Source of the DNA: Candidatus Omnitrophota bacterium
Lineage (GTDB): Bacteria; Omnitrophota; Gorgyraeia; Zapsychrales; JAHFFX01
Direction: 5' to 3'
DNA length: 64,000 nucleotides
NCBI GenBank assembly: GCA_023247725.1
Contig: JAHFFW010000003.1
Location: forward strand, 64,704-128,703
In this document: one piece after another, positions 1 to 56,037 of the stretch
How positions within the stretch are numbered: the stretch's first letter is position 1
Layout of the letters: each line of letters begins with the position of its first letter
Made by a program: the position numbers and the translations under genes
The notes under the pieces: model-generated
Told to the model about the DNA's origin: nothing
Seen by the model: the letters and a program-made list of their open reading frames with translations, nothing else
Database searches by the model: none

Positions 1-988
1 GCTCAAAAGTGTCCTTTCGAGTTCCGGGAACCTGATCGAAGATCCCCGCACCAATAGTCTCATTATTTCAGATTATCCCGCACAGTTCGCCTTGATTGAG
101 CAGACACTAGCTCGGTTGGATGTTCCTATCCCCCAAATTTTGATTGAAGTCGAAATGCTGGATGTTTCGAAGAATACAGCGGATCTTTTAGGCGTTAAAT
201 TTGGAGATACGCCATTGACCTTTACCGGCGCCGAACGTGATCATGTTTATCCCTGGAATCAAAATCAGCTTTTACGCAAAGGACTCATTGAAGATCCGCA
301 ATATCGGGTCGGGACCATCAGCGCTGCAGGACTCATAATGACCTTAAATTTCTTGCGCACGCAAACGGATACCAAAAATCTCGCGCGTCCTAGGATTTTG
401 ACCTTGAATAATGAAATGGCGGAAATCAAAATATCCACGAGTGAAGCCATCGGAGTCAGCCAAAAATCCAGTGGGACTGGAGGAGAAACCACAACCGTGC
501 AAGAAGCCGAACGGGTGCAAACTGGCGTTTTTCTCACGGTCACACCTCAGGCCAATCTGTTGACGGGTGAAATCACCATGGCCATCACCCCCAAAGTCAT
601 TCAGGCGAGGACCGGAGCCACATTTCAAGGCACAACCTTTAAAGATCCGGAGGAGCGCGGGACCCAATCTCTCTTGCGGGTCAAAAATGGTGACACGATT
701 GTCCTTGGTGGCCTGGTTCGAACCGACGTCAGCCATACGATTACAAAGTTGCCCTTTCTCGGGGATCTTCCGGTCATCGGCCGGGTCTTTCGCCATAATG
801 ATGAAGCCGAAGTGGAAAGGGAATTAATCATCTTCATCACTCCGCATATTTTGGCCGAAGATGGGACCATCCTTTCCGCCCAAGCCCAAAAAGTTTCGTT
901 CAATCCCATTTCACGCGAACAGGATATTCCAGCCCATCGTAAACAAGAAATCGACAAGGCTTTATTGATCATCGAAAACAAACGCTAA
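1..988 (+). CDS. Secretin (GspD/PilQ family), C-terminal part; the 5' end lies outside the window
   Basis: The reading frame is open from base 2 with no upstream stop. The translation has the secretin N-domain-like stretch NSLIISDYPAQFALIEQTLARLD and the conserved secretin C-domain (VKNGDTIVLGGLV, LPFLGDLPVIGRVF, ELIIFITPHIL). Confidence 0.85.
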   Translation, partial: LKSVLSSSGNLIEDPRTNSLIISDYPAQFALIEQTLARLDVPIPQILIEVEMLDVSKNTADLLGVKFGDTPLTFTGAERDHVYPWNQNQLLRKGLIEDPQYRVGTISAAGLIMTLNFLRTQTDTKNLARPRILTLNNEMAEIKISTSEAIGVSQKSSGTGGETTTVQEAERVQTGVFLTVTPQANLLTGEITMAITPKVIQARTGATFQGTTFKDPEERGTQSLLRVKNGDTIVLGGLVRTDVSHTITKLPFLGDLPVIGRVFRHNDEAEVERELIIFITPHILAEDGTILSAQAQKVSFNPISREQDIPAHRKQEIDKALLIIENKR

Positions 989-1000
989 AGCGATATCCTT

Positions 1001-2734
1001 ATGGCACATTTGAAACTGGGAGAAATCCTCGTCCAGCAAGGGGTCATTACGGGAGAGCAATTAACCCAGGCCATCGCCGCCCAAAAACAAACCAAAGGCC
1101 GCATCGGTGAACTCCTGGTCAAACAAGGGATCGTCTCTGAAGAAGATATTGTCGTTGCTCTTGCGACCCAATTCTTGCTCCCGTATTCTTCCAAAAAGAA
1201 TGACCTTCTCAAACCCCAGGCAGGACAAGGCCTCGAAAAAATCATACCTAAAGAATTTGCGGAAAAAAATGCGGTCCTGCCTTTATCCGTCAGTGATAAT
1301 CTCCTAACCGTAGCCGTTCATGATCCGCTGGATTTGATGCTCATTGACAATCTTAAAAGGATCTCGGGCTGTGAAGTGAATCTGGTCCTTGCGACCAAGT
1401 CCGAAATCAACCAGGCCATGCAGAGTTTTTATGGAATCATTCGTGCCAGCGGCGGAGCCTTATTAGGGCAAGCGGTGCAAAACACTTATGAAGCGGAAAC
1501 AACCTCAACCACCTTGAGTGCCGAAACGGAAACCTCCGGTTCCGAGGCCCAACTCAGTCTTGACAAGCTCATCGCTAAGGCCGAGGAAGCCCCGGTCATT
1601 AAATTGGTCGATTTGATTATCCGTCAGGCCATTGATGAACGAGCGAGCGACATCCACATTGAACCTTTCAAAGATAAAATCCGTTTGCGCTACCGCATCG
1701 ATGGATCGCTCTATGAAATTCCACCTCCGGCGAGGCATTTGCATTTGCCCATCGTTTCCCGCATCAAAATTCTTTCCAAATTGGATATTGCCGAAAAAAG
1801 ACTCCCGCAGGACGGCGCCATTGCGGCCAAATTGGAAAACCGGACCGTTGACCTGAGAGTCTCCACAGTTCCGACCGTCTGGGGAGAAAAGGCGGTCATG
1901 AGAATCTTGGATAAAGAGGCGGTGCCGCTGGAACTGAGCCGGTTAGGTTTTGATACCAAACAACTGGAGATCTTGCGCAAGGCGCTGCATAGCCCTTACG
2001 GGCTTTTCTTCGTGACTGGTCCGACGGGCAGCGGCAAATCCACCACCCTTTACTCGGCGCTCAATGAAACCATTGATCCCAAAAAGAATGTCATGACGGT
2101 CGAAGATCCGGTCGAATTTAAAATCGAAGGGATCAATCAGGTGGGAATAAAATCAGACATCGGATTAACCTTTGCCTCAGCCTTGCGGGCCTTTTTGCGC
2201 CAAGATCCGGATGTGATTATGGTTGGAGAAGTCCGGGATCTGGAAACCGCCCAAATCTGCGTTCGGGCCGCTCTCACGGGACACTTTGTTTTAAGTACAT
2301 TACACACCAATGATGCGTCCTCCGCAGTCACGCGCCTTATGGATATCGGCATTGAATCATACCTGTTGACGCCGTCCTTAATCCTGGTTTTGGCCCAGCG
2401 CCTCGCCCGCCGACTTTGCCAAAAATGCAAAGAGCCCTATGAACCGACTCTGGAAAATTCCGGAGGCATCAAATTTCATACGGATCTCATTTACCGCCCC
2501 AAAGGTTGCCACGAATGCAACCACACCGGCTACCGTGGCCGTTTGGTGATTGGAGAAGTTTTGCCCATCAATGACAGTATCCGCAATCTGATCGCCCAAA
2601 AAGCTCCCTACACGCAGATTCGTGATGCGGCCAGGAAAAATGGGATGAATACGCTTTTTGAAAGCGGCCTCAAAAGAGTCGAAGACGGTTTAACCAGCCT
2701 AGAGGAAATCCTCAATACAACGGCCTTGATGTAA
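1001..2734 (+). CDS. Type II secretion / type IV pilus assembly ATPase (GspE/PilB family)
   Basis: 577 aa. N-terminal T2SS-E N domain, Walker A motif GPTGSGKSTT, Asp/His boxes, and the tetracysteine motif CQKC...CHEC characteristic of GspE/PilB. Confidence 0.93.
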   Translation: MAHLKLGEILVQQGVITGEQLTQAIAAQKQTKGRIGELLVKQGIVSEEDIVVALATQFLLPYSSKKNDLLKPQAGQGLEKIIPKEFAEKNAVLPLSVSDNLLTVAVHDPLDLMLIDNLKRISGCEVNLVLATKSEINQAMQSFYGIIRASGGALLGQAVQNTYEAETTSTTLSAETETSGSEAQLSLDKLIAKAEEAPVIKLVDLIIRQAIDERASDIHIEPFKDKIRLRYRIDGSLYEIPPPARHLHLPIVSRIKILSKLDIAEKRLPQDGAIAAKLENRTVDLRVSTVPTVWGEKAVMRILDKEAVPLELSRLGFDTKQLEILRKALHSPYGLFFVTGPTGSGKSTTLYSALNETIDPKKNVMTVEDPVEFKIEGINQVGIKSDIGLTFASALRAFLRQDPDVIMVGEVRDLETAQICVRAALTGHFVLSTLHTNDASSAVTRLMDIGIESYLLTPSLILVLAQRLARRLCQKCKEPYEPTLENSGGIKFHTDLIYRPKGCHECNHTGYRGRLVIGEVLPINDSIRNLIAQKAPYTQIRDAARKNGMNTLFESGLKRVEDGLTSLEEILNTTALM

Positions 2735-2750
2735 TCTTAAAGGAAGAACC

Positions 2751-4001
2751 TTGACCAAATTCACCTACGTTGCCAAAGATAGCAACGGTAAAACAGTTAC
2801 TGAAATCACTGAAGCCAATGATCAAGAGAGTCTGATTGAACGCTTGCAGGGCCAGGGTTTTTTTGTCGTCAGCCTTCAGGAATTCAAGGCTCCCGCCCCC
2901 AGATCCCAACGTAAAGAAAAAGTTGACGACACTGGAAAAAAACTTAAAGAAAATTTCACTCACTCTAATATCGTCCTTGAAGACCAGCTGGTTTTTGCCC
3001 GCCAGTTAGCCACAATGCTCGAAGCCGGCGTGACGCTCCTGCGCAGTCTGGATGTTATCGTGGCTCAAGTGGAAAGCAAGGGGTTCTCCAAAGTTCTTAA
3101 TGAGGTCCGCCGTGATGTGGAGCAGGGGTCATCTTTAAGCGCCTCTCTCTCGAAACATCCCAAAGTCTTCAATCAATTCTGGGTGAGCCTCGTCGAAGTT
3201 GGGGAGGCCTCTGGAACCATGCCACTCGTTTTGGAAAAGTTAGCCTTTTATTTGGAGCAGCAGGAGGCTTTCAATTCAACGATTGTTTCCGCGATCATTT
3301 ATCCCGCCATTCTTTTTTGTGTGGCTGTCGGAGCCATTGCCTTTTTCGCTTTTTTTGTCGGGCCGAAATTTCAGGAAATTTTCGATTCCTTTGGAGTCAA
3401 ACTGCCTTTCATCACGATCGCGCTTTTGACCACATTCAAATTTGTCAAAACCAAATTCATCTTTATCGTTGCGGTGATCGCAGCGATCTTTTACGCATTC
3501 AAAAATTATATCCGCACTCCAAACGGTCAACTTCAATTTGAATGGTTTCTCTTCAATATACCTAGCTTCGGACGAGTCTTTAAACTCATCATCGTAGAGC
3601 GTTTTTCCTCACAAATGTCCATCCTCATTGATAGCGGGGTTCCCATTCTTTATGCCTTAGACATCACTCAACGACTGGTCAGCAACAAGACCTGTGAAAT
3701 AATCGTCGGTGAAATCAAAGAAAGCGTCCGGGAAGGCGAACTCCTCGTCGGCCCTATGCAAAAAAGCAATTTCTTTCCACCCATGGCTATACAGATGATC
3801 ATGGTTGGAGAAGAAACCGGCGAATTAAGTAAAATGCTCAAACACGTCTCTGCCTTTTACCAAAAGCAGGTGGAAACCTTTATGAAACGCTTCGCGACGA
3901 TGGTTGAGCCCATTATGCTCGTCTTTATGGGAGGTGTCATCGGTGTCATTGTGCTCGCGATGTTTTTGCCTATGTTTAATCTGACCCAGTTGGGACGATG
4001 A
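2751..4001 (+). CDS. Inner-membrane platform protein (GspF/PilC family)
   Basis: 416 aa with two repeated GspF domains and three TM segments. TTG start preceded by AAGGAAG. Directly follows the ATPase gene. Confidence 0.9.
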   Translation: MTKFTYVAKDSNGKTVTEITEANDQESLIERLQGQGFFVVSLQEFKAPAPRSQRKEKVDDTGKKLKENFTHSNIVLEDQLVFARQLATMLEAGVTLLRSLDVIVAQVESKGFSKVLNEVRRDVEQGSSLSASLSKHPKVFNQFWVSLVEVGEASGTMPLVLEKLAFYLEQQEAFNSTIVSAIIYPAILFCVAVGAIAFFAFFVGPKFQEIFDSFGVKLPFITIALLTTFKFVKTKFIFIVAVIAAIFYAFKNYIRTPNGQLQFEWFLFNIPSFGRVFKLIIVERFSSQMSILIDSGVPILYALDITQRLVSNKTCEIIVGEIKESVREGELLVGPMQKSNFFPPMAIQMIMVGEETGELSKMLKHVSAFYQKQVETFMKRFATMVEPIMLVFMGGVIGVIVLAMFLPMFNLTQLGR

Positions 4002-4411
4002 TTCGTCAATCTTGTGCATTTACCATGCTGGAAATGTTGGTGACAATCATGATTATCGGCGTTTTGGCAGCCGCGGCTCTTCCGGTATTTTTCCAGACCA
4101 TCGAATATTCTCGTGGCTCTGAAACCATGATTGCTCTTTCCACTTTGCGAAATTCCGTTGAACGCTGTTATTTAATGACCGCAGATTATACGCGTTGCAA
4201 TAGTATGATGATTCTGGACGTCGAGGATCCATCCAACCTTCCTAACGCCCACTTTTCATATACGGTTAACCCCAGCGCTCCAACCGCATTCTCCATTACT
4301 GCAGTGCGCAATACCCGTGACGGCGGTTCAACCGCCAGCACGATTTGGCTGAATTTCGACGGTTCAACAATTACGAAAGGAGGGACAGGAGCTTTTGGAG
4401 CGGTATATTGA
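3998..4411 (+). CDS. Prepilin-type pseudopilin / type IV pilin-like protein (paralog A)
   Basis: N-terminal class III signal with hydrophobic helix: AFTMLEMLVTIMIIGVLAAAALP (Ala rather than Gly at -1). The C-terminal end TAVRNTRDGGSTASTIWLNFDGS...GTGAFGAVY is shared with the 4764 gene. Confidence 0.75.
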   Translation: MIRQSCAFTMLEMLVTIMIIGVLAAAALPVFFQTIEYSRGSETMIALSTLRNSVERCYLMTADYTRCNSMMILDVEDPSNLPNAHFSYTVNPSAPTAFSITAVRNTRDGGSTASTIWLNFDGSTITKGGTGAFGAVY

Positions 4412-4431
4412 TTTACTCTTTCAAAATACAG

Positions 4432-4560
4432 TGGATCAATATACGATCATGGCCAAGCGCAACACCCGTGACGGCGGTAGCACCTCTAGTACTATTTTTT
4501 TTGACGAAACCACGATTGCGCGGGGAGGGAGCGGATCTTTCGGTGCAATCATGCGAACAG
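4432..4560 (+). pseudogene. Promoter-less pilin C-terminal cassette fragment (third copy of the RNTRDGGST...G(T/S)G(A/S)FGA(V/I) module)
   Basis: Translates as AKRNTRDGGSTSSTIFFDETTIARGGSGSFGAI. It shares a near-identical 21-nt stretch (cgcaa[t/c]acccgtgacggcggt) with the 3' end of the upstream pilin gene. It has no prepilin N-terminus and no RBS. Confidence 0.6.
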
Positions 4561-4617
4561 TCCAAAATTCTATAACTTATCCAAATTCCTGGACTTATAA
4601 AATAATTGAAATTCTTT

Positions 4618-4645
4618 TTGCTTTGCTTTTTTTGTCGGCTATAAT
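4618..4645 (+). promoter_or_regulatory. Sigma70-like promoter (TTGCTT-N16-TATAAT) in front of pilin paralog B
   Basis: Hexamers read directly: TTGCTT at 4618-4623 and TATAAT at 4640-4645, about 120 nt upstream of ATG 4764. Confidence 0.45.
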
Positions 4646-4763
4646 TTAAATGATAAACCAAAAAAAGGGGGTGATGTGCGCACAAGTAAACGGGCTGTGG
4701 TAACTTGCAAGCTAGGCTTTTAAAAAGCTAAAGTTGCATCCATTGAGGAGGGAAAGTAAGCAA

Positions 4764-5186
4764 ATGAGAAAAAATAATCGAAGCGGTTTTACCTTACTGG
4801 AAGTGATCATTGTCATCATCATCATCGGTGTTCTGGCAAGCTTGGCCCTGCCGCGATTCTTCAGTACCGTTGAATACTCCCGAGCTACGGAAGCCATGCA
4901 GTCCCTGGCCACGGTGCGGCAATCCGTCGAGCGTTGCTACCTGATGAGAAACAGTTTTGCGGCGCCCTGTAATGCCTTCGCAAACTTGGATGTGGAGGAT
5001 CCGGGTGGTGTTCCAAACGCGCACTTCACTTACGGATTCACCAACACCGCGAACGCATACACGATCACGGCGACCCGTAACACGCGTGATGGTGGCAGCA
5101 CTGCTAATACCGTTTGGCTCATGTTTGACGGAGCCGCGGGAACCGTATCCCGAGGCGGTACAGGCGCCTTTGGTGCAGTAAACTAA
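4764..5186 (+). CDS. Prepilin-type pilin/pseudopilin (paralog B of 3998); probable major subunit with its own promoter
   Basis: MRKNNRSGFTLLEVIIVIIIIGVLASLALP is a canonical G|FTLLE prepilin peptidase site. RBS GAGGAGGGAAAG. It is about 60% identical to the 3998 product along its length. Confidence 0.85.
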   Translation: MRKNNRSGFTLLEVIIVIIIIGVLASLALPRFFSTVEYSRATEAMQSLATVRQSVERCYLMRNSFAAPCNAFANLDVEDPGGVPNAHFTYGFTNTANAYTITATRNTRDGGSTANTVWLMFDGAAGTVSRGGTGAFGAVN

Positions 5187-5203
5187 GAAGTTCTGATCGG
5201 CTA

Positions 5204-5246
5204 AAAACCCCTGGCCACGTCCCCTCCAAAGATGTGGCCAGGGTTT
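5204..5246 (+). terminator. Stem-loop (10-bp stem CCCTGGCCAC/GTGGCCAGGG) after pilin B with a weak T-tract
   Basis: Perfect inverted repeat at 5208-5218 / 5234-5243 followed by TTT. The U-tract is poor, so terminator function is uncertain. Confidence 0.35.
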
Positions 5247-5490
5247 AAATATGAAAAGAGGAAGCAAATATCTTCATCAAAGACACGGAAAGACCACCGT
5301 GTCTTTTTTCCTTCGCCGGTCAAAAATTTATGGATCCCTACGGGCAAACCCTTGGTACCTTCATTATGCCCCGCCTGATCAGCAGCGGGCTTATCCGCTA
5401 ATGAATGCGATCGGCTTACCCCTCAGCAAACATCCAGCTTCGCTCAATTACTTTCCTGTTGAGCTTCGCAGAATAGCCCTGCGAAGCCGA

Positions 5491-6021
5491 ATGCGAAAGC
5501 AGTTCGACGAAGAAGGGCATCCGACGAAGCAGAAGCCTATTCGCATTCAAACACGGGCAAGCCTATCTTCTGCGAAGGCGGATAAAAATTCGTTCAGGGC
5601 CACACTCATACCTTCTCTCAAAAAAAATTCGGGATTCACCTTGATGGAAGCCATTGTCGTGATCATTATCCTGGGAACTATTGCAGCCCTGGCGATTCCC
5701 AATTATCAATCCGCTGTAGAGACGGTCCGTTCGCGCGAAGGGGTTAATACTTTAACCGCGCTCCTCAATGCTCAGCAGCGCTATGGTCTAGAAAATGGAG
5801 GGGTATTCACCAACGCTCTCGGCAATCTGGATATCACGATTCCCGGGTCCACCAGTTTTAATGCCCCCACGGTCGCCGCTGCGGTCAATCCCGGGGACAT
5901 CGCCGCTTCGGTACAGCGAACTGGCGGTACCTATGGAACTTATACTTTATCAATTACGCGGGGAGGGACGGTTTCCTGTGCGGGTGGTTCGGGTGGAATT
6001 TGTGGAAAAATAGGGTATTGA
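5491..6021 (+). CDS. Prepilin-type pseudopilin with an unusually long leader; start uncertain (the open frame begins at 5251)
   Basis: Internal class III signal KKNSGFTLMEAIVVIIILGTIAALAIPNYQ at about 5620. There is no ATG/GTG/TTG within 40 codons upstream of the G|F site. The nearest in-frame ATGs are 5491 (48-aa leader) and 5251 (125-aa leader). Confidence 0.55.
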   Translation: MRKQFDEEGHPTKQKPIRIQTRASLSSAKADKNSFRATLIPSLKKNSGFTLMEAIVVIIILGTIAALAIPNYQSAVETVRSREGVNTLTALLNAQQRYGLENGGVFTNALGNLDITIPGSTSFNAPTVAAAVNPGDIAASVQRTGGTYGTYTLSITRGGTVSCAGGSGGICGKIGY

Positions 6022-6022
6022 T

Positions 6023-6433
6023 ATGAAACAGTCAATAGAAAAAAATCCCCAAACCGGATTCACCATGCTGGAATTGATGGTCGTCGTCGTTATTATTGCG
6101 GTCATCGCCGGTTTTGCTATTCCTAATTATCAGCGGGCGGTGGAACGTTCCTATTTACGGACCGCCACGGCCAATTTGCAAGCCCTGCACAGCGTTCAGC
6201 AGATTTATCGTACCCAGAATGGGAATTACTGGGGAACAGGCGATGTCGCCGCCATTAATACCAATCTGGGTCTCAACATTATTGAAAGCGGAATGACCTA
6301 CACCTCGACAGCAGGGGGTGCCAATTTTACGGTAACAGCGGTCCGGTGGGGACCGGCAGCCACATTCACGGTGACCGTCACGGATACGGCGCTTTCCGGG
6401 GCCAATCCGGCGTGCTCGGGTTCATGTCCATAA
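6023..6433 (+). CDS. Prepilin-type pseudopilin (GspH/PilE-like)
   Basis: MKQSIEKNPQTGFTMLELMVVVVIIAVIAGFAIPNYQRA, 136 aa. Confidence 0.85.
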   Translation: MKQSIEKNPQTGFTMLELMVVVVIIAVIAGFAIPNYQRAVERSYLRTATANLQALHSVQQIYRTQNGNYWGTGDVAAINTNLGLNIIESGMTYTSTAGGANFTVTAVRWGPAATFTVTVTDTALSGANPACSGSCP

Positions 6434-6828
6434 CGAGAATCAAAAATCTCAAGATTTTACAATCCTCCGGCGGATTCACGATTGTGGAGGTCCTCGTTGC
6501 TACTGTCATTTTTACCATCGCTGCCTTAGGAACATTTTCCACGATTGCCTCGATCCGCAAACCCGCTGCGGTTTCTGAACGCAAACTGCAAGGCGCTTAC
6601 TACGCCAAACAGATTCTGGAAGATCTTCGGCCTCAGGTCGACGCACGTAACTGGAACCCGGCCACCGGTCAATACAGCAGCGGCGATCTGACGATGGGAA
6701 CCCATCTTCTTAGTACGACCACGATTAACGGAACTCCTTATATATCCAGTTATGTTGTTTCAACGGTTGCTGGGACTCCCAACCTTTTTCAAGTTCAGGT
6801 GATGGTCAATTGGACCGAAATTCCTTGA
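6424..6828 (+). CDS. Prepilin-type pseudopilin (GspI/PilV-like)
   Basis: Internal ATG at 6424 gives MSITRIKNLKILQSSGGFTIVEVLVATVIFTIAAL. The longer ORF from 6346 overlaps the previous gene and lacks an RBS. Confidence 0.75.
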   Translation: MSITRIKNLKILQSSGGFTIVEVLVATVIFTIAALGTFSTIASIRKPAAVSERKLQGAYYAKQILEDLRPQVDARNWNPATGQYSSGDLTMGTHLLSTTTINGTPYISSYVVSTVAGTPNLFQVQVMVNWTEIP

Positions 6829-6833
6829 ATGTT

Positions 6834-7463
6834 ATGAAAATTGGCATCCGTATTACACAAAAAAAGGCTCTGACGCTCGTGGAATTGATGATTTCCACGA
6901 TGCTGGTTGGGCTCATCATGCTCGGCGTTGCCTCGATTGATTACGCGACCAAACAGTCCCAGCAAACGACCACTCGGCGCAGCTTGGTGGCCATGCAGGC
7001 CGGGGCCATCCTCATGGACATGGCCAAGAATGCGTCCGTGGCGACAGGGACGTCCACGAATATTGGGATTAATTCCTCGCATATGGGAGCGGCGCCATGG
7101 AATGGCCCGACTGACTTGTGTGTCCGCCGGGATATCGATGCCACGGGGGCCTCCAATAATACGCCCTGGGATTTTGCCGATGATCGATGGGTCTGTTACA
7201 CGATTGCCAGCAGTCAAATGCAGCGATGTATTGTGGCCGCACCCGCGGCTTGTCCTTTGGGCAGTGGCCAAATGATTGCTCCTATCCAGGCTCTCAATGT
7301 TACGATTACGGCGGATAATACGTTAGGGGTAGGGGATTTTAATATTCTCATCACCGTGACGACGCGCTTTACCCCTGGAGCCGCGGTTGACCCCCTGAAT
7401 AATCCCGAGACCTCGGTCAGTACTCGAGTACTTCCATCCTTCCATAGTTGGATAGGTTCATAG
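6834..7463 (+). CDS. Pseudopilin-like protein (GspJ/PilW-like)
   Basis: MKIGIRITQKKALTLVELMISTMLVGLIMLGVA has an N-terminal methylation-type helix (ALTLVE variant). 210 aa, last gene of the pseudopilin run. Confidence 0.65.
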   Translation: MKIGIRITQKKALTLVELMISTMLVGLIMLGVASIDYATKQSQQTTTRRSLVAMQAGAILMDMAKNASVATGTSTNIGINSSHMGAAPWNGPTDLCVRRDIDATGASNNTPWDFADDRWVCYTIASSQMQRCIVAAPAACPLGSGQMIAPIQALNVTITADNTLGVGDFNILITVTTRFTPGAAVDPLNNPETSVSTRVLPSFHSWIGS

Positions 7464-7569
7464 GATTTAACTTTTCAGAATTGAAGATTTTGGTGGGAGA
7501 GCAGCCCCAAATTTCCTTTTAGAGAATCTATGGTATCGAGTGTTGCGCCGGTCTTTTTCTATTTAAATC

Positions 7570-7642
7570 GGGTCGGTAGCTCAGTTGGGAGAGCGTCTGC
7601 TCCGCAAGCAGAAGGCCGGGGGTTCGACTCCCCCCCGATCCA
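7570..7642 (+). tRNA. tRNA-Ala (anticodon CGC)
   Basis: Cloverleaf folded by hand: acceptor GGGTCGG/CCGATCC with the G3:U70 Ala identity pair, D-arm GCTC-AGTTGGGA-GAGC, anticodon stem TCTGC/GCAGA with loop TCCGCAA, T-arm GGGGG-TTCGACT-CCCCC, discriminator A. CCA is not encoded. Position 33 is C rather than the usual U. Confidence 0.8.
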
Positions 7643-7662
7643 TTAATTTCAAATTTCATCCT

Positions 7663-8406
7663 GTGCATCGCTTTTATAGCCCATCGATTCTTTCTGTGGG
7701 GACAACGATTGAAATCCTCGATCCCGCCGAGTTTCATCATCTGAAAAATGTTCTGCGGTTAAAGCTTCATGCGCCGGTAACGATTTTTGATGGGAAAGGC
7801 CAAGAAGCCTTCGGCATCATTGCGGCCATCAAGAAATCTTCCGCAACGGTACAGCTGCAAAAAGTGAAAAAATCGGAAGAAACAAAGCCCCGCCTCATTT
7901 TAGCCTGTGCCATTCCCAAAAATGCCAAATTCGAATTCATTATCGAAAAATGTACCGAATTAGGCATTGATGAACTGATCCCCATGCAAACCAGCCGCAC
8001 GATTGTGCGATTTTCGACTCAACAAAAAGAAAAAAAATTCCTCCGCTATCAAACCGTGGCCCTCAATGCGGCGAAACAATGCGTACGCTCGATGATCCCT
8101 CGCATTCATCCGGTGACTTCGTTCACGCAAGTTTTAAGACAACGCTCGCCCAATGGCCTCGGTCTTATTCCCATTCTGTTCGGAAATCGTCAACTGCTTC
8201 TGCCCGCGCTGCAACAAGCCATCAGCGCCCCTCAAATCATATTTCTGATCGGACCCGAGGGGGATTTTACAAAAGAAGAGGGGGCGGCCGCCGGCGCAGC
8301 GGGCTTCTCACCCGTATCATTAGGTCCAACGACATTAAAGGTGGACACAGCCGCCATTTCGGTCGTGGCGGCGGCTCATTTCGTTTTTGACGCGCACTCC
8401 CCTTGA
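7663..8406 (+). CDS. rsmE: 16S rRNA (uracil1498-N3)-methyltransferase RsmE
   Basis: HRFY N-terminal motif, PUA-like N domain, SPOUT-type C domain with LIGPEGDFT. The annotated ORF start at 7585 overlaps the tRNA, so the in-frame GTG at 7663 was chosen. Confidence 0.8.
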   Translation: MHRFYSPSILSVGTTIEILDPAEFHHLKNVLRLKLHAPVTIFDGKGQEAFGIIAAIKKSSATVQLQKVKKSEETKPRLILACAIPKNAKFEFIIEKCTELGIDELIPMQTSRTIVRFSTQQKEKKFLRYQTVALNAAKQCVRSMIPRIHPVTSFTQVLRQRSPNGLGLIPILFGNRQLLLPALQQAISAPQIIFLIGPEGDFTKEEGAAAGAAGFSPVSLGPTTLKVDTAAISVVAAAHFVFDAHSP

Positions 8407-10331: not shown

Positions 10332-10370
10332 AGCCCTCTCCCATGACAACCGTGAAAGGAGAATGAAACC

Positions 10371-11417
10371 ATGGTAGAATCCAAAAAGTTGGCCGAGAAA
10401 GAAAAAACCCTTCCCGAAACGAGTGTTAGCAATAATAAACAAAAGGCCCTGGAACTGGCCCTGTCCCAGATTGAAAAACAATTTGGCAAGGGTTCCATCA
10501 TGAAACTCGACGGGGCAACGCATCTGGATGTCCCGGCGATTCCGACTGGTTCGCTCAGTCTGGATGCTGCCTTAGGGATCGGCGGTTTCCCGCGCGGACG
10601 AATCGTCGAGGTTTATGGTCAGGAATCTTCGGGAAAGACCACTCTGACGTTAAGCGTGATTAGCCAAGTGCAAAAACAGGGAGGGGTGGCGGCCTTTATT
10701 GATGCCGAACATGCCTTTGATTCCAACTATGCGAAAAGAGTCGGCGTCAAATTGGAAGACCTTTTGATTTCACAGCCCGATACCGGCGAGCAGGCGTTGG
10801 AAATTACCGAAACCCTGGTGCGTTCCAATGCCGTCGATCTGATCGTGGTGGATTCCGTCGCCGCCCTGACTCCCCGGGCCGAAATCGAGGGGGAGATGGG
10901 CGATGCTCACATGGGTCTTCAAGCCCGGCTTATGTCGCAAGCCTTGCGCAAATTGACCGGAGCCATCAGCAAATCCAAAACCTGTGTGGTCTTCATCAAC
11001 CAAATCCGGATGAGGATCGGCGTCATGTTTGGCAATCCCGAAACGACGACGGGCGGACGCGCTTTGAAATTCTACGCCTCGGCCCGCATTGAATTGCGAA
11101 AAATCGAATCGCTCAAAGTCGGTGAAGAGATCGTCGGCAACCGGGTCCGGGCGAAGGTAGTCAAAAACAAAGTGGCGCCGCCATTCAAAGACGCCGAATT
11201 TGAAATCCTCTTCAGCGAAGGAATTTCCCGGATCAGCGACATTCTGGATTTAGGATCCCAGACCGAGGTCATCGCCAAAAGCGGTTCTTGGCTTTCGTTT
11301 GAAAATGAAAAGATTGGACAAGGCCGGGAAAGCGCCCGCAAATTTCTGCAGGAAAACCCCAAAACCCTTTCCCGGATCGAAAAACAAATCCTGGATAAAT
11401 TGAATATCAAACGCTGA
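10371..11417 (+). CDS. recA: Recombinase RecA
   Basis: [24 protein letters not shown], Walker [13 protein letters not shown], and the L1/L2 loops are conserved. 348 aa. Confidence 0.97.
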
Positions 11418-54017: not shown

Positions 54018-54404
54018 ATGAAGAGAATGAAAACCGCCAAGGGTCTCACGCTGGTTGAGTTGCTCATTGCCGTGTTTCTGCTTTCTGTCGGTATCGCCAG
54101 CACCCTCATGTTTTTTTCGAATGCCATGCTCTCGGCGGATTTTGCCGGGGACATCAGCGTCGCTTCGACCCATGCCGAACATGTTCTTGAAGAGATGAAG
54201 TCTCGTCGGAGCCTAGAAGAGATCCAGGGCACCAATTGGCAAGAATGGGCCTTGCAACAGGATTTCAATATGCTGCCGAATGAAAGGGTGGAGGTCAACT
54301 TCGGCAATATTGAAGGTGCCCTTATGGATGTTACAGCCCAAATCCATTGGATCAAACGGGCCCGCGATAATCAGGTTTCTTTTATGACGACCTTATCCCG
54401 ATGA
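54018..54404 (+). CDS. Prepilin-type protein (PilV/GspI-like minor pilin)
   Basis: MKRMKTAKGLTLVELLIAVFLLSVGIAS; possibly starts at ATG 54027. Confidence 0.75.
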   Translation: MKRMKTAKGLTLVELLIAVFLLSVGIASTLMFFSNAMLSADFAGDISVASTHAEHVLEEMKSRRSLEEIQGTNWQEWALQQDFNMLPNERVEVNFGNIEGALMDVTAQIHWIKRARDNQVSFMTTLSR

Positions 54405-54883
54405 AGATACAAAAGCGGAAGGCTTTCACCTTACTGGAAATTTTGGTGACGGTCGCCCTGTTCACCTTTTTGGTGGCAGCGGTCTATCAGGCTTTTTTGG
54501 TAGGAAATCGATCCTGGACTAGTTATAACTACAGGGTCTCCATGCAAAGAGAATTGCGCTGGACCCTTTATGCATTGGTCAAGGATCTGCGAGAAGCCAA
54601 GGAAATTTTGGTGACTCAAGATGATACGAAGAGCGTTTTGAGCTTTAATAAACCAGGATCTGGCATCATCATTTACACCTGGTTCAAAGCGGGTGATCGG
54701 GCACAGCATTTGCTCCGGCAAGAAGAATCCAAAGAACGAACGATTGCCCAGCATGTTTCAAATCTGGAATTTATTCAGCCTTCCACCAAAGAAATTTTCG
54801 TTGATATCACGGTCACAGAGAGACCATTATTCGCCGCGCCATTGAGCTTGAATTTGAAACAAAAAGTCAAGGTCCGAATATAA
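54401..54883 (+). CDS. Prepilin-type protein (PilW/GspJ-like minor pilin)
   Basis: MKIQKRKAFTLLEILVTVALFTFLVAAVYQAFL. Confidence 0.75.
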   Translation: MKIQKRKAFTLLEILVTVALFTFLVAAVYQAFLVGNRSWTSYNYRVSMQRELRWTLYALVKDLREAKEILVTQDDTKSVLSFNKPGSGIIIYTWFKAGDRAQHLLRQEESKERTIAQHVSNLEFIQPSTKEIFVDITVTERPLFAAPLSLNLKQKVKVRI

Positions 54884-54897
54884 ATTTATAAAAGTCC

Positions 54898-56037
54898 ATG
54901 GGCCACAGAATTTCAAACAATAGGGGAGCTGCCCTCATCCTGGCCTATATTGTCATGGCTGCTTTAGTGACTCTTTCCGCCGGGTTTGCCCTTTCCACAT
55001 TCAATGAACTCAACGATGCCCGTCGATACCGGGATTCGTTGGCTGCCTTTTGGCTGGCGGAATCGGCCCTGGCGTCTTTTCTGCAAAATACCTCCATGCT
55101 GGATAAATCCGGAGCCATGAATATGACTTACCCTCAGGGCAGCGTGGTTTTACAAAAAGATGATTCTTATCCCACGAAAAGGTTGGTCACCGCGACGGGC
55201 AACGTGGGTGGGACCAAACGCAGTTTGCAGTTGGAGTTTCCCGCGTTAGCGCCGGAGGTATTCAATAATACGGTTTCGGTCAAAGGGGATATTCTTATTT
55301 CTGGGAAAAAATCCAATCTTGCGTTTAACGACAAAACCCGGATCAGCGGCCAGGTCGCCAAGAGCTCGCAGTTTTCTACGGTTAATTTTGAAGACCTCAA
55401 AGAAAAAACCGATTCGCATCTGGTTTCCATGCTGTATCCCGACGCAAATAATAATGGAGTCGTGGACGAATTTGAGGATTTTGTTCAGGTGAATCGAAAT
55501 TTGGTCACGACCTACCCGAAGGAGGAAGTCATTTATGTCAAGGGCAACGATACTTATACGGTTGTTCCCAGCAGTGCCTTGAAGGGCAAAAAGATTATTT
55601 TCGTGGAAGGAAGCCGCAGCGGCAAAGGCAATGTGATCATTCAATATATGGATGGCTGGCAAGATGACGAAAATTTAACCATCATCGCGACCGGCAATGT
55701 CACCTTCAATCAGCTGGGGATGGGCCAAACCAATTCGCAGCTTAATGTCATTGCCTGGGGCGGTTATTCGGAAACTGCCGCTTTGCCGGGAACTCGTCGA
55801 GGCATGATCTATACGCATGGAATCGCGAGTTTTGATGCCATTGATGAAACCTCGATCACTTACGGCAGTGTCGTGGCCAATGAAGGCTTAAAAATCAAAG
55901 AAATCTGGTCATATAAATCCTTTTACTATGCGGATACTCGCATCAATGGAGTTGTGCCTCCAGGTTTTGAAGGTCTTATCGGTGGAAGACTTTCGAGTGG
56001 GTATGCCGTCAAACCTAATGCATGGCGGGAAATTTAG
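54898..56037 (+). CDS. PilX-N-domain minor pilin / large pseudopilin
   Basis: MGHRISNNRGAALILAYIVMAALVTLSAGFALSTFNELNDARRYRDSLAAFWLAESAL has the PilX N-terminal architecture; 379 aa. Confidence 0.65.
   Translation: MGHRISNNRGAALILAYIVMAALVTLSAGFALSTFNELNDARRYRDSLAAFWLAESALASFLQNTSMLDKSGAMNMTYPQGSVVLQKDDSYPTKRLVTATGNVGGTKRSLQLEFPALAPEVFNNTVSVKGDILISGKKSNLAFNDKTRISGQVAKSSQFSTVNFEDLKEKTDSHLVSMLYPDANNNGVVDEFEDFVQVNRNLVTTYPKEEVIYVKGNDTYTVVPSSALKGKKIIFVEGSRSGKGNVIIQYMDGWQDDENLTIIATGNVTFNQLGMGQTNSQLNVIAWGGYSETAALPGTRRGMIYTHGIASFDAIDETSITYGSVVANEGLKIKEIWSYKSFYYADTRINGVVPPGFEGLIGGRLSSGYAVKPNAWREI

Follow-up and report, generated by a model that had tools for sequence, protein, structure and literature searches.

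The window analysed here is a stretch of 64,000 nucleotides (nt) from a metagenome-assembled genome (MAG) of an uncultured bacterium, Candidatus Omnitrophota (contig JAHFFW010000003.1, positions 64,704 to 128,703). Positions 1-7500 of its forward strand carry an operon of the type IV pilus or type II secretion class, in which the genes follow each other in the order secretin, PilB, PilC and pilin. The subject of this work is a short fragment of a pilin gene that lies between two full-length prepilin genes of this operon, g1 and g2. An earlier reading of the letters alone, called below the sequence-only reading, had compared the fragment to the silent pilS copies that vary the expressed pilE gene of Neisseria, and had named a decaying duplication as the fallback. 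The features of the region, in the coordinates of the window, are the following (ORF, open reading frame):

92-988, + strand: secretin gene, partial at the window edge
1001-2734, + strand: gene of the PilB/GspE ATPase with an MshEN domain (T2SSE)
2751-4001, + strand: gene of the PilC/GspF platform protein (PF00482 T2SSF, E = 6e-56)
3998-4411, + strand: g1, a divergent prepilin paralog of 137 amino acids (PF07963 and TIGR02532 over the cut-offs)
4395-4649, + strand: ORF of 84 codons from the ORF list, which encloses the fragment and extends as far as the promoter of g2; not regarded as a gene
4403-4444, + strand: hairpin of 15 bp, from an inverted repeat search and folding
4419-4552, + strand: orphan 3' pilin fragment of 44 codons, from tblastn, codon alignment and mapping onto an AlphaFold model
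4561-4763, + strand: intergenic region, the ancestral one between PilC and the major pilin, from alignment with the spacers of three related genomes (L006, L007 and L008)
4764-5186, + strand: g2, the conserved major-pilin ortholog of 140 amino acids with a type IVa-pilin-like fold, from orthology and an AlphaFold model
5205-5312, + strand: two terminator-like hairpins 3' of g2 (5206-5246, and 5279-5306 followed by a T-run)
~5617-6021, 6023-6433, ~6424-6828 and ~6834-7463, + strand: four more prepilin genes (p3 to p6)
7570-7642: tRNA-Ala(CGC), between the last minor pilin gene, p6, and rsmE
10371-11417: recA

Pilin genes and the order of the locus

The proteins encoded by g1 and g2 are 59.8% identical over 132 residues. 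They score 25.9 and 34.5 bits, respectively, against PF07963 (cut-off 21.2) and 25.3 and 31.3 bits against TIGR02532 (cut-off 16.3), in agreement with the sequence-only reading, which had described them as paralogous prepilins. Both carry the prepilin peptidase motif (G or A, then F-x-x-x-E) together with a hydrophobic helix. The residue at position -1 of g1 is Ala, followed by FTMLE, and Ala is also found at this position in two other members of the family (P0011 and P0012). The genes of the assembly machinery, namely those of the secretin, T2SSE and T2SSF proteins, lie directly 5' of the pilin genes, and PilM_2 can be seen further upstream on the full contig.

The AlphaFold model of g2 (predicted local distance difference test score 82.5) has the pilin fold: the α1 helix (residues 11-62) packs on a four-stranded antiparallel β-sheet (residues 89-94, 99-105, 115-122 and 127-132), and an αβ-loop is present. 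The top Protein Data Bank match in Foldseek is the PAK pilin (1oqw, E = 7.6e-4, template modelling score 0.65), and the gonococcal pilin comes next. Like the type IVa major pilins PAK PilA of P. aeruginosa (1oqw) and PilE of N. gonorrhoeae (5vxx/1ay2), g1 and g2 possess a class III signal peptide and Glu5, and g2 shares with them the long α1 helix and the four-stranded antiparallel sheet. In contrast to these proteins, to which the sequence identity is only about 21%, g2 has no C-terminal disulfide-bonded D-region. Across the family, Cys is conserved only at two positions, C58 and C69 of g2, which fall at the end of helix α1 and within the αβ-loop, and the C-terminal module contains no Cys.

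The two genes differ in their position relative to the ancestral layout. PilC orthologs in Candidatus Omnitrophota MAGs are 60-80% identical to that of the window, the closest being those of L006, L007 and L008 (80, 76 and 75%). The synteny secretin-PilB-PilC-pilin(s)-p3-p4-p5-p6-...-rsmE-PMT is conserved. At the place occupied by g1, the sister genomes have a spacer of 160-370 nt (160-220 nt in L006, L007 and L008), and in these three genomes the first pilin after PilC is the g2 ortholog, with an identity of 70-74%. The spacers directly 3' of PilC in the same three genomes align to positions 4561-4763 of the window. The alignment begins with CCAAAAT, which directly follows the PilC stop codon in L006, and extends to the ribosome-binding site (RBS) of g2, GAGGAGGG, at 4745-4752. 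It includes the g2 promoter that the sequence-only reading had proposed: a -35 box TTGCTT at 4618-4623 and, after N16, a -10 box TATAAT at 4640-4645. The orthologous spacers in L006 and L008 have TTGCAA/TTGCAT-N16-TATAAT at the corresponding place. A generic promoter scan missed this promoter because its -35 box matches at only three of six positions. About 20 nt 3' of the -10 box, a block GGGGGTGATGTGCGCAC (4667-4683) is found in the 5' untranslated region (UTR), and it recurs in L006 (7369-7381), in L008 (7367-7379) and, with one mismatch, in L007. This block may be an operator or a 5'UTR element; the g2 5'UTR as such folds no better than its shuffles (z = +1.7). The hairpins downstream of g2 fold at -44.9 kcal/mol (z = -5.6), and a terminator is present at the equivalent place in L006.

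The alignments show the ancestral order, PilC followed by a spacer with promoter and 5'UTR and then by the major pilin, an order that the sister genomes have retained. As judged from the same alignments, g1 and the fragment together (3998 to ~4560) are a lineage-specific insertion between the PilC stop codon and the ancestral spacer. The promoter, the 5'UTR block and the RBS are orthologous to those of the sister spacers, and g2 is therefore the conserved, separately transcribed pilin; because it has kept the conserved promoter, a strong RBS and the terminators, g2 is the major pilin of the operon. The start of g1, on the other hand, overlaps the PilC stop codon (ATGA). This gene lacks a separate promoter, and its translation is probably coupled to that of PilC. 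Its nearest relative among 5.8 billion protein clusters is 59% identical.

The fragment between g1 and g2

A tblastn search of the window with g1 and g2 finds three copies of the C-terminal module in the 64 kb: those of the two genes and the fragment, with E-values of 6e-11 (g1) and 3e-12 (g2). The third copy announced by the sequence-only reading is thus present, with a similarity well above chance, and it is partial; its start, which had been placed at AKRNT, has to be moved about 10 codons upstream. The homology begins at 4419, only 8 nt past the g1 stop codon, where FQNTVDQYTI corresponds to residues 92-101 of g2 (FQNTVDQYTIMAKRNTRDGG... in the fragment, FTNTANAYTITATRNTRDGG... in g2). It extends over residues 92-139 of g2, that is, the end of β1, strands β2-β4 and the tail. 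When mapped onto the g2 model, the fragment lacks the signal peptide, the αβ-loop and, as had been stated, the N-terminal α1 helix, and its export or polymerisation is therefore not possible. The open frame 5' of it, ISTVQQLRKEGQELLERYIDLL, has no prepilin motif. A stop codon is absent from the homologous position, and the frame continues into the T-rich promoter of g2.

The fragment had also been described as having neither start nor promoter. The former is not correct, because an ATG (4449-4451) lies directly 5' of AKRNT and a TTG opens the 84-codon frame 4395-4649. The latter stands, as neither a sigma-70-like site nor a Shine-Dalgarno sequence was found before the ATG at 4449.

It is conceivable that the region has some function other than that of a pilin gene: the 84-codon frame or the version starting at ATG 4449 could be translated, or the hairpin and the spacer could act as an mRNA-stabilising or attenuating element. 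The TTG start lies 11 nt after a GGAGG, and the gene caller of one assembly (L005) did call this ORF. The GGAGG, however, is dictated by the conserved Gly-Gly codons of g1. The ORF has no Pfam or NCBIfam matches and no homologs, and its exact sequence is missing from a collection of 15 billion proteins. It has no signal peptide, and its hydrophobic tail is translated T-rich promoter. The ORF shows no sign of use and was not considered a gene.

The other part of this explanation is the hairpin. Its arms (4403-4417 and 4430-4444) contain a 10 bp perfect inverted repeat, GTATATTGAT and ATCAATATAC, and it sits exactly on the g1 stop codon and spans the first codons of the fragment. The predicted fold has -16.4 kcal/mol (z = -3.5), and none of 200 shuffles is equally stable. 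Against a regulatory role, the hairpin has no U-tract, and no Rfam family matches within 3900-5700, where the only hit is a sub-threshold hammerhead inside g2 (E = 0.93). The related genomes, which have neither g1 nor the fragment, contain nothing comparable. The hairpin may be a footprint of the truncation event, a minor mRNA element or 3' stabiliser, or a product of chance. On balance, a function of the translated or RNA type is very unlikely.

A +1 frameshift fusing g1 to the frame of the fragment was considered as well and was set aside: a slippery motif is absent, and β-strands would occur twice in the product.

Paralogous pilin genes are typical sites of mis-assembly in metagenomes, and the fragment could in principle have been created by a chimeric join or by the collapse of a pilin-paralog repeat. 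One of the other contigs that carry the locus (Logan contig L005) terminates at window position 4633. However, three other assemblies from three other samples (ERZ27279563, SRR14366766 and SRR14366760), produced with different pipelines, have the same sequence as the window in 3998-5186; L005 is the one of them that covers only the part up to 4633, and the other two span g1, the fragment and g2. Furthermore, the copies are only ~60% identical in DNA sequence and are too different to be collapsed or mis-joined. An assembly artefact is thus extremely improbable.

Divergence and origin of the fragment

The closest relatives of the fragment are the two pilins of the same genome, g2 (61% amino acid identity) and g1 (55%). 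The corresponding DNA identities are 65% and 60%. The nucleotide alignment of the three copies, which the sequence-only reading had recommended for defining identity blocks, yields one near-identical block with g1, GCGCAA[T/C]ACCCGTGACGGCGGT, and nothing longer than 8 nt with g2. This block, previously given as 21 nt of identity, is 15 nt long if exact and 22 nt long if one mismatch is allowed, and it codes for the family-invariant RNTRDGG motif.

In codon alignments, the proportions of synonymous (pS) and nonsynonymous (pN) differences are 0.67 and 0.31 between the fragment and g1, and 0.74 and 0.22 between the fragment and g2, so the synonymous sites are close to saturation. The fragment differs from g2 at 17 of 44 positions but has kept all 10 of the invariant or near-invariant residues of the family (P = 0.003 under random placement). 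Neutral drift at such pS values would have erased the recognisability of the sequence, which implies that most of the divergence arose within a working gene and that the truncation came later. The fragment also bears signs of decay. It has lost its stop codon and, by deletion, the conserved Trp-Leu of β3; it has 14 unique residues; and it is consistently the most divergent module. A relative-rate test with L006a counts 11 unique changes in the fragment against one in g2 (P = 0.006), which is a weak indication, as L006a is a g2 ortholog rather than a clean outgroup and the tests with other outgroups are non-significant.

The parent of the fragment was searched for as well. A word-indexed protein search gives no match to the fragment, and an exhaustive phmmer search with its 44 residues returns only repetitive giant or artefactual proteins (P0013-P0016), which were judged spurious. 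Recent gene conversion between the copies was rejected as a source of the present sequences, because the identity between g1 and g2 is an even ~59% over the whole gene and a permutation test of codon runs between g1 and the fragment does not reach significance (P = 0.36).

A non-coding partial copy of the 3' end of a gene adjoining that gene is also the arrangement of a diversity-generating retroelement (DGR), in which the fragment would be the template repeat and the C-terminus of g1 or g2 the variable repeat. DGRs are frequent in uncultured small-celled lineages. The mismatches to g1 fall on fragment bases A (16), T (15), C (12) and G (10), and this spectrum, which is not restricted to adenine, rules out a template repeat. 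The identity of ~60% likewise departs from the ~90% expected of a template and variable repeat pair. The probability of this explanation is practically nil.

How unusual the fragment is can be judged from a survey in which the C-terminal modules of all prepilin ORFs were searched back, in six frames, against 1.37 Mb of sequence from the window, 79 genome loci and 80 metagenome loci (160 sources, with about 155 related type IV pilus loci). Of the 92 binned best matches, 90 lie in open frames with a prepilin motif and the other two are both the fragment of the window, so that among 91 module loci no other orphan exists. Full-length paralog pairs, tandem or dispersed, with 63-93% nucleotide identity are, by contrast, common (L006, L008, L010, L020/L024, L021 and L039), showing that duplication and turnover of the major pilin gene are routine in the clade. 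As in the window, the paralogs of these pairs belong to the same pilin family and occupy the same place 3' of PilC, and often one copy directly adjoins PilC or its partner and lacks a separate promoter. They differ from the window in that both copies are full-length; a truncated third copy exists only in the window.

In one of these genomes, L021, the paralogs 7655-8122 and 10340-10783 are 100% identical in DNA sequence over their first and last 90 nt and 73-97% identical in their middle part. Such a mosaic suggests that either the ends have undergone gene conversion or the αβ-loop region is under diversifying selection.

By combining these observations, it is possible to describe the origin of the fragment, which is very probably what remains, without function, of a third major-pilin paralog in tandem, that is, a decaying duplication. 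This supports the fallback of the sequence-only reading. Features of this kind, truncated paralogs left by duplication and deletion, are already well known, and the fragment is a new instance. It resembles other remnants of such turnover in that its 5' part, its expression signals and its stop codon are missing, in its absence from sister taxa and related genomes, and in being the most divergent member of its group. It differs from typical remnants in having no frameshifts or stops over 44 codons and in keeping all invariant residues; the truncation would therefore be recent relative to the divergence.

The major pilin gene would have been duplicated repeatedly, as in several related genomes. 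One of the paralogs, g1, remained an intact although divergent gene and is now fused onto the PilC stop codon. Another would have stayed functional through a long period of divergence, until a deletion or an illegitimate recombination removed its 5' two-thirds and left a junction 8 nt past the g1 stop codon. The deletion may have taken the spacer together with the 5' two-thirds of the middle paralog. It would fit equally well that an incoming g1 replaced the lost part through one-sided homologous and illegitimate recombination. The leftover would then be carried passively, probably on read-through transcripts of the PilB-PilC-g1 operon. Without the signal peptide and α1, it would give no pilin able to assemble and would decay slowly. 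As the best PilC identity found in a search of the JGI metagenomes for closer relatives is only 70%, sister species cannot date the truncation.

Several observations weigh against this description. The 44 codons are still in frame, the indels are in-frame only, internal stops are absent and the invariant residues are intact, all of which would also be expected of a cassette under selection. The random indels that the sequence-only reading had expected of a simple pseudogene are not seen, nor is a ratio of nonsynonymous to synonymous change near 1, pN/pS being well below 1. An intact frame would fit the recent truncation of a long-functional paralog, yet it supplies no positive evidence of decay. 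Six of the seven RNTRDGG codons are the same in the fragment and in g1, possibly the trace of a short conversion tract. The stable hairpin couples the end of g1 to the start of the fragment, and the region is perhaps not wholly functionless. The search for further cassettes covered only the 64-kb window of the genome. Finally, the order of events may have involved a deletion, a 3' duplication or a replacement by foreign DNA.

Comparison with silent cassettes, and turnover of the major pilin

The intact frame leads back to the comparison with pilS. A silent donor of this type would store an alternative C-terminus, to be copied into g1 or g2 by RecA-dependent gene conversion, and would thereby vary the surface of the pilus. 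In Neisseria, about 19 silent copies carry the conserved cys1/cys2 blocks, a SmaCla repeat follows pilE and each of the pilS loci on the 3' side, and a G-quadruplex (G4) motif with the gar small RNA is found upstream of pilE; the process depends on RecA, and the tracts in variant pilE genes are bounded by microhomology (PMC13321361).

The window shares part of this layout with the pilE-pilS system of N. gonorrhoeae and N. meningitidis. The fragment is a promoter-less, 5'-truncated pilin copy that adjoins full-length, expressed pilin genes in the same orientation, and the pilus is type IVa-like, the fold of g2 matching that of the gonococcal pilin. The fragment has also retained its reading frame and invariant residues, and has the 22-nt near-identical block in common with g1. 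The shortness of the shared identity is not decisive by itself, as the recombination tracts of Neisseria are bounded by microhomology only (PMC13321361). A recA gene lies ~5 kb downstream, recA being universal.

Other characteristic parts of the Neisseria system were nevertheless not found in the window. There is one cassette in 64 kb, compared with the ~19 pilS copies of gonococci (PMC13321361). The DNA identity is only 60-65%, with exact matches of at most 15 nt (g1) and 8 nt (g2), and the single near-identical block has no second flanking block with which it could bracket a tract as cys1 and cys2 do. No SmaCla-like 3' repeat is shared downstream of g1, the fragment and g2, and a scan of both strands of the window finds no G4 motif (G3+N1-7 x4). 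None of the ~155 related loci has the cassette. What the fragment covers is the C-terminal module, which is relatively conserved, whereas the variability of the family concentrates in the middle of the gene, for example in the L021 paralogs. A simple recombination with g1 would, moreover, lose the stop codon.

Variation in the population, the expected outcome of such a system, is not seen either. The assemblies do not differ at a single site in 3998-5186, although one of them (L001) differs from the window elsewhere, at seven sites in 11 kb (5459, 5598 and five in recA); as consensus assemblies were compared, rare variants are not excluded. At 90% identity, the protein clusters of g1 and g2 have one member each, and none of the 5.8 billion clusters contains a protein with a C-terminus of the fragment type. 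The analogy to pilS and pilE is thus not borne out, and a silent donor working in the manner of Neisseria is very unlikely. Slightly less likely still is that the fragment is maintained as a silent cassette from which gene conversion occasionally transfers C-terminal (β-sheet) sequence to g1 or g2 in short tracts bounded by microhomology.

Of the seven differences between the ERZ27279563 assembly and the window, five cluster in 140 bp of recA (10751-10890), and in that assembly recA is split into ORFs of 127 and 217 amino acids. The cause could be variation between strains, an error of assembly or, in one population, a recA pseudogene.

Some neighbouring features also deserve mention. The N-terminus of the PilB-type ATPase contains an MshEN domain (PF05157, E = 5e-17). 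MshEN is the module with which MshE-type ATPases bind cyclic diguanosine monophosphate (c-di-GMP), and its occurrence suggests that the pilus may be under c-di-GMP control. The gene callers of all assemblies report a protein of 256 amino acids at 5251-6021. Its homology to pilins starts only at ~5617 (TTG; LKKNSGFTLME...), and the preceding 5187-5616 holds both terminator hairpins of g2. This ORF is probably an over-extended version of the minor pilin p3. The interval between p6 and rsmE contains the tRNA-Ala(CGC) gene in the window and a second major-pilin paralog (10485-10901) at the equivalent place in L006. Further away, at 54401-56037, another prepilin-like gene (MKIQKRKAFTLLEILV...) is followed by more pilin-like ORFs, a sign that the window has a second cluster of pilin or pseudopilin genes.

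If the fragment were a pilS-like donor after all, it would represent the first pilin variation of this type outside the Neisseriaceae, in an Omnitrophota lineage that is possibly host-attached, and further cassettes would be required in the genome. Tracts derived from the fragment, for example STSSTIFFDETTIARGGSGSFGAI, would, if they occurred in g1 or g2, point to a second, independent origin of cassette-based pilin variation.

As the remnant of a third paralog, the fragment has its value mainly for annotation and for the history of the gene family. The 84-codon ORF 4395-4649 and the 256-amino-acid ORF 5251-6021 should not be called genes, and the conserved major pilin of the operon is g2, not g1. 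The locus would then be a small illustration of how the major pilin gene turns over in the Omnitrophota, through duplication, capture behind PilC without a promoter, and truncation.

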